A model generated the notes under the pieces. That model did not search any database and was not told where the DNA came from. It was given only the letters and a program-made list of their open reading frames with translations. Made by a program: the position numbers and the translations under genes. From Escherichia phage vB_EcoM_G53, in the sequence record MK327943.1: a stretch of DNA of 64,000 nucleotides; one strand, given 5' to 3'. Numbering within the stretch: position 1 is the stretch's first letter; each line of letters opens with the position of its first letter. Positions 43,530-43,985 of this stretch are shown piece after piece.

Positions 43530-43985
43530 TTATTTTAGATCTTCGGCCCAATCTAGTTTTAAGGGTTCTTTGTATTCACGGTCGAGAATAACCGGAATAG
43601 CTACATCACCACTGAATGATAGTTGGCCAACGTTATATGATAACGTTATATGTGGAGTGTAGTCGTCGAAATCATGAGTAGCACCTAAAGCTCGTGCATA
43701 CTGATGACGACATCTAAGATATTCAGAATCAAGAACTAAAACCAGTACAGCGCCGTCGTCAGTTTTCCATACCTCAAAGTGCCCTGATTCAGCAACAGAA
43801 TAACTGCCGCTAGATGTAGTATATGGTATGTTTACACGTGAATAACAAATTGTTGAATGAAGCTTTTCACGTGGTACTGGATTAGGAATTCTTAATTTGC
43901 GCTGGAGGTCTTCCAGCGCATCAAGTGTTAATTCCGAAAATTTAGCTGCGACGTAGAGGCCTTGTGAAAAGTCCTCAAATTTCAT
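43530..43985 (-). CDS. 57B: 57B / Acb1-type anti-CBASS 2H phosphodiesterase
   Basis: 151 aa located directly upstream of 57A as in T4; two H-x-[ST] motifs (HSTICY, HITLSY) typical of 2H phosphoesterases. Confidence 0.75.

Follow-up and report, generated by a model that had tools for sequence, protein, structure and literature searches.

On the evidence of its sequence, the 57B gene of Escherichia phage vB_EcoM_G53 (MK327943.1) is an intact, ordinary and already known copy of the gene for the characterised phage enzyme Acb1, which degrades the cyclic-nucleotide alarm signals of the bacterial CBASS defence. We consider it very probable (about 95%) that the open reading frame (ORF) of 151 codons found on the minus strand of the 64,000-nucleotide stretch analysed here (the window) is orthologous to gene 57B of T4 and codes for Acb1, a small one-domain 2H phosphoesterase whose enzyme activity would follow from orthology. 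Our analysis established the identity of this gene, the conservation of its functional residues, its synteny, its integrity and the purifying selection that acts on it. The positions of the features discussed below are collected in Table 1.

Table 1. Positions of acb1, of its functional elements and of the other features discussed in the text. Positions are those of the window, except in the last three rows, which refer to the records named there.
Feature	Position	Strand	Basis or remark
acb1 (T4 gene 57B orthologue), CDS	43530..43985	minus	151 aa plus stop codon
First catalytic motif HSTICY, residues 43-48	43842..43859	minus	read from sequence
Second catalytic motif HITLSY, residues 112-117	43635..43652	minus	read from sequence
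C-terminal lid LDWAEDLK, residues 144-151	43533..43556	minus	aligned to T4 LDWADDLK, 145-152
57A, tail-fibre chaperone, 76 aa	43985..44215	minus	Pfam GP57, 80.9 bits
Gene 1, dNMP kinase	44220-44954	minus	Pfam DNMK, 323 bits
ipI, internal protein I	43165..43452	minus	Pfam IPI_T4, 169.7 bits
TATAAATA, T4 late-promoter consensus	44570..44577	minus	pattern search
acb2 (vs.4 orthologue), 88 aa	28147..28413	minus	PF24729 Acb2_Tad1_hairpin, 65.7 bits; PDB 7UQ2 "Vs.4", E=1e-30
48-nt cassettes (three)	42785-42832, 43116-43163, 43471-43518	minus	
ORFs starting with MKTY[KQ]EFI (four)	43165-43452, 42833-43096, 30368-30682, 30013-30342	minus	
denV, in frame into internal-head-protein gene	30747-31439	minus	ORF of ~226-230 aa
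tRNA cluster	41171-41327	minus	Arg-TCT and Met-CAT
57B of T4 (NC_000866)	73952-74410		public record
57B of JK45 (NC_054940)	77770-78225		public record
acb1 of AV111 (Mosigvirus, OR352941)	L009 301-813		170 aa

Identity of the 57B product and conservation of its functional residues

The ORF begins with ATG and is the longest that its frame permits. It is present exactly as the original prediction had described it, with the motifs HSTICY and HITLSY, and these two are the only H-x-[ST] motifs in the protein. We rejected the bare motif pair as independent evidence for Acb1 because its chance frequency is too high: two or more such motifs occur in 8 of the 95 window ORFs of at least 100 aa, a pair spaced by 50-100 residues occurs in 5 of the same 95, and shuffling of the residues of the 151-aa protein produced two or more motifs in 13.6% of trials and a pair with such spacing in 5.4%. 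It is homology, not the motif pair, that lifts the Acb1 call above chance. The Pfam Acb1 profile (PF23474) matched with 197.3 bits against a cutoff of 27, and residues 8-149 were aligned to positions 1-144 of its 144 positions. BLASTP against T4 57B (NP_049750) gave a gapless alignment with 129 of 151 residues identical (85%), 139 of 151 positive and E=2e-102, in which both HxT motifs were aligned; the original prediction had staked its identification of 57B / Acb1 on this alignment over the catalytic motifs, and the identification is borne out. The best match among solved structures was Acb1 of Erwinia phage FBB1 (PDB 7T26/7T27; E=1.1e-58, 63% identity over 140 residues). Assignment of the compact 2H phosphoesterase fold rests on sequence identity to this structure (chain 7T26_A), because a single-sequence AlphaFold2 model of the protein was unusable (mean pLDDT 39.6, pTM 0.29). 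No NCBIfam model matched Acb1, Acb2, IPI or the 87-aa neighbour. The plus-strand ORFs of 30-35 aa that overlap the locus were judged not to be real.

Acb1 has a 2H phosphoesterase fold with an HxT/HxT catalytic tetrad, which in the T4 enzyme consists of H44, T46, H113 and T115 (Hobbs et al. 2022, Nature 605:522, PMC9117128). In T4 Acb1, nucleobases are stacked by the aromatic residues Y12, W74, F107 and W147, adenine N6 is contacted by E141, and a C-terminal lid of residues 145-152 shuts over the ligand (PMC9117128); without the lid, the enzyme is inactive (bioRxiv 10.1101/2025.08.21.671373). The window protein is one residue shorter at its N-terminus, and all nine published functional residues are the same as those of T4 with the numbering shifted by one. 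These are the catalytic residues H43, T45, H112 and T114, which were aligned to both T4 and FBB1, the stacking residues Y11, W73, F106 and W146, and the adenine-reading E140. The lid is not truncated, and 7 of its 8 residues, including the stacking W146, are those of T4. In a seven-sequence alignment of the window protein with T4 Acb1 and with homologues from phages of Acinetobacter, Aeromonas, Klebsiella and Vibrio (two), all 28-85% identical to the window protein, the invariant columns included G9, Y11, H43, T45, H112, T114 and E140. FBB1 Acb1, solved as apoprotein (7T26) and with 3'3'-cGAMP (7T27), is of the same length class and also has a C-terminal lid; its HxT/HxT tetrad, Y12, E142 and W148 are conserved. 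It differs in having F74 and Y108 where the window protein and T4 have W and F, which are aromatic-for-aromatic exchanges, and in a one-residue insertion after position 79.

The window protein differs from T4 Acb1 at 22 of its 151 residues, and some of these substitutions lie beside functional residues, namely I43 (T4) to L42 (window) next to the catalytic H43, L71 to F70 near W73, and D149 to E148 in the lid. The enzyme might then have a substrate range that is shifted relative to that of T4, e.g. by loss of 2'3'-c-di-AMP or cA3 cleavage, which would let the phage avoid Panoptes. A recent preprint (bioRxiv 10.1101/2025.08.21.671373) reported that specificity is determined by the core of the enzyme rather than by its lid, and that cleavage of 2'3'-c-di-AMP varies among relatives within one structural group. 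One such relative, 2H PDE-9 (PDB 9Q2G/9Q2Y, "Anti-CBASS protein Acb1"), is a viral 2H phosphodiesterase of the structural group of T4 Acb1 that degrades 3'3'-cGAMP, cleaves 2'3'-c-di-AMP poorly and does not trigger Panoptes (bioRxiv 10.1101/2025.08.21.671373). Its two histidine motifs align with those of the window protein, but the match is marginal (E=0.007, 19.6 bits) and its lid is N-terminal, which makes it a far more distant comparison than T4 Acb1; judged by these features, the window protein is clearly of the T4 type and not of the 2H PDE-9 type. Furthermore, the nine ligand-contacting and catalytic residues are all identical to those of T4, and the substitutions are mostly conservative, as the number of positives reflects. 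A shifted substrate profile of the Mosigvirus-type Acb1, such as reduced cleavage of 2'3'-c-di-AMP or cA3, has no pointer in the sequence, and we regard it as very improbable. If it were true, a large group of coliphages would keep anti-CBASS activity with less triggering of Panoptes.

The next Pfam match after Acb1 was 2_5_RNA_ligase2 (PF13563; E=0.013), and "RNA ligase" is the label of PHROG 755 and the RefSeq label of T4 57B and many of its orthologues. With a 2H fold that is common to Acb1 and LigT-type enzymes, the gene product might ligate or repair RNA as an enzyme of the LigT / 2'-5' RNA ligase type, with RNA ends and not immune signals as its substrates. Against this, the PF13563 match, at 15.9 bits, fell short of its cutoff of 27 and was confined to residues 70-131, whereas the Acb1 profile was matched over its full length. 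T4 Acb1 was found by activity-guided fractionation as a cGAMP-degrading activity, and its ligand complex has a dedicated pocket for cyclic di- and trinucleotides (PMC9117128). Moreover, the literature consulted contains no report of ligase activity. Cellular 2H phosphoesterases of the LigT type (PF13563) share the superfamily fold and the two H-x-[ST] motifs, and Acb1 differs from them as a minimal version of 150 aa with its pocket for cyclic di- and trinucleotides. We therefore view a role in RNA ligation or repair as highly unlikely; the "RNA ligase" label is a carry-over from the level of the superfamily and, for 57B/Acb1, a misnomer.

Distribution and integrity of acb1

The window is a segment of a T-even phage, and the DNA around the locus is 99% identical to that of vB_Eco_NicPhage, JK45 and others. 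The exact 151-aa protein (100% identity) was found in at least 52 of the phage records listed, and a protein of at least 99% identity in 137 of those listed; most of the matching records are Mosigvirus-type coliphages. Compared with T4, the acb1 DNA is 75% identical, with 72.5 synonymous and 40.5 non-synonymous differences and a dN/dS of ~0.06, a ratio that is approximate because dS is saturated. The comparison with phage JK45 gave 4 synonymous and 0 non-synonymous differences. That acb1 could be degenerating or have lost its function, as in the case of the nonsense allele by which phage Bas43 escapes Panoptes, is scarcely credible, although the gene is dispensable without CBASS and counter-selected by Panoptes and although natural and selected null alleles exist: the ORF is of full length without frameshift or premature stop, neither the lid nor any catalytic residue is lost, dN/dS is low, and the identical protein occurs in dozens of independently isolated phages.

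In phage AV111, acb1 is the same as that of the window through residue 147, where a small 3' rearrangement swaps the last four residues of the lid, EDLK, for a 24-aa read-through tail. Because catalysis by T4 Acb1 requires the lid, the AV111 allele may be a naturally occurring one with attenuated or altered function.

Gene neighbourhood, expression and other anti-defence genes

The original prediction had placed acb1 directly upstream of 57A. The two genes do adjoin, and "upstream" holds in plus-strand coordinates only; in the direction of transcription, acb1 is directly downstream of 57A, and ipI is the next gene downstream. The start codon of acb1 shares one base with the stop codon of 57A (TAATG, read as GAA TAATG AAA; junction GAAGAATAATGAAA), which suggests coupled translation, and 57A and acb1 are probably co-transcribed and translationally coupled. 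T4 acb1 occupies the same slot between 57A and ipI and also overlaps 57A by start and stop codons, with an overlap of 4 nt in the T4 annotation versus 1 nt in the window. The order 2-3-1-57A-57B-ipI of the window is that of T4 (NC_000866), and the order 3-1-57A-57B was found in four of the five distant homologues that were fetched (Acj9, 50AhydR13PP, Va3 and KP15, all Straboviridae). The acb1 and ipI genes constitute the same small anti-defence cluster that was described for T4 (PMC9117128); ipI is an inhibitor of the GmrS/GmrD restriction enzyme, and the T4 anti-defence island is commented on in the same study.

Neither a canonical Shine-Dalgarno sequence nor a dedicated promoter was identified directly upstream of acb1, and a pattern search found no MotA box upstream of 57A or acb1. 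A sigma-70/terminator consensus scan around the locus yielded 11 promoter-like sites, compared with 9.9 expected from shuffles, i.e. no enrichment. At gathering thresholds, Rfam matched only two tRNAs in the 64-kb window and nothing at or near the acb1 locus. A match to TATAAATA, one of six on the minus strand of the window, lies inside gene 1, ~355 nt upstream of 57A, and we infer from it a candidate late promoter for 57A-acb1. Expression of T4 57B/acb1 was reported to be middle/late (bioRxiv 10.64898/2026.03.30.715471), and we infer the expression of acb1 in this phage from its coupling to 57A together with the T4 data.

The window also contains a gene for Acb2 (Vs.4), which starts at an ATG within a maximal ORF of 144 aa. 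By homology, the phage thus has both known anti-CBASS proteins, Acb1 and Acb2, encoded ~15 kb apart as in T4. Acb2 has the same cyclic-oligonucleotide targets as Acb1; its fold and mechanism are unrelated, and it is a sequestering sponge, not a cleaving enzyme.

Several other features of the window are recorded here as separate observations. Three 48-nt cassettes, read on the minus strand, precede three consecutive small genes: a 68-aa membrane ORF, an 87-aa ORF and ipI. In each cassette, an early promoter of the T4 type (TTTACA-N17-TATAGT or TACTAT, with a TG upstream) has its -10 box inside a hairpin of 10-12 bp, and the hairpins gave folding z-scores of -3.5 to -4.9. The ipI cassette has a different stem sequence (AGGATGATGG) in which pairing is kept, and since the stem differs and yet pairs, the changes are compensatory. 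The cassettes match the PeSL promoter/stem-loop cassettes of T4-type phages, which have TTTACW-N17-TAYWAT with AGNA-loop-TCNT stems (PMC4122927). The capsid-targeting leader of internal proteins, MKTY[KQ]EFI, starts four ORFs. Of these, ipI alone matched Pfam; the neighbouring 87-aa ORF matched only PHROG 13302, a family with no assigned function. These ORFs probably encode variable injected internal proteins.

The reading frame of denV (endonuclease V) continues into that of an internal-head-protein gene downstream of it. Compared with APCEc01, the closest relative, the window lacks a single A at ~31028, where an AAA run precedes the denV stop codon by four codons. APCEc01 and JK45 have two separate genes here, and the downstream gene of the window retains its own AAGGA and ATG. 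Either a sequencing error in the homopolymer or a real frameshift by which DenV is lengthened could account for the fusion. Finally, the tRNA cluster downstream of the ipI region consists of two tRNAs only, whereas eight tRNAs, together with segB and rnaC/rnaD, occupy the corresponding region of the T4 reference.

Predicted action of Acb1 against CBASS and consequences for the phage

The enzyme activity, substrate range and in vivo role ascribed here to the window protein are those of the T4 and FBB1 enzymes. The Acb1 reaction is metal-independent and proceeds in two steps via a cyclic phosphate intermediate; cGG and cA4 are not cleaved, and the H44A/H113A variant of T4 Acb1 is inactive (PMC9117128). 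Acb1 prevents activation of the effectors Cap5, Cap4 and CapV, and T4 Δacb1 is restricted by CBASS (PMC9117128). Cleavage activity has been established for T4 Acb1 and for nine of its homologues (PMC9117128); in the literature consulted, no homologue from the clade of the window protein is named among the nine that Hobbs et al. tested. In a transposon screen, 57B/acb1 was dispensable on K-12 and depleted on a CBASS host, i.e. it was conditionally essential there. In addition, Acb1 degrades the decoy signals 2'3'-c-di-AMP and cA3, which triggers type I and type II Panoptes, and phages escape from Panoptes by inactivation of acb1.

By analogy with these enzymes, the window protein would bind its ligand in a U-shaped pocket with the bases stacked on Y11, W73, F106 and W146, E140 would read adenine N6, and the C-terminal lid would shut over the ligand. 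H43, T45, H112 and T114 would then cleave the phosphodiester on the 3' side of adenosine by metal-independent acid-base catalysis, with a 2',3'-cyclic phosphate as intermediate. The resulting linear molecules would be unable to activate the CBASS effector, so that abortive infection would be prevented. The same promiscuity of Acb1 would render the phage sensitive to guards that sense decoy signals (Panoptes I and II), which fire upon depletion of 2'3'-c-di-AMP or cA3.

In most GenBank records, 57B/Acb1 is called "hypothetical protein", and few say "cyclic phosphodiesterase" or "anti-CBASS Acb1-like". The mislabelling constitutes a systematic annotation gap, which conceals a known anti-defence function from automated surveys. 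The original prediction rightly regarded the gene as known biology: Acb1 was described in 2022 and the exact protein is already present in dozens of public phage genomes, which leaves little discovery value in the finding itself. Its practical use lies in annotation and in the prediction of host range. With acb1 intact, we predict that phage G53 evades CBASS and is sensitive to Panoptes; because it carries both acb1 and acb2 intact, the predicted resistance would extend to many CBASS types, and the predicted sensitivity to guard systems of the Panoptes type.
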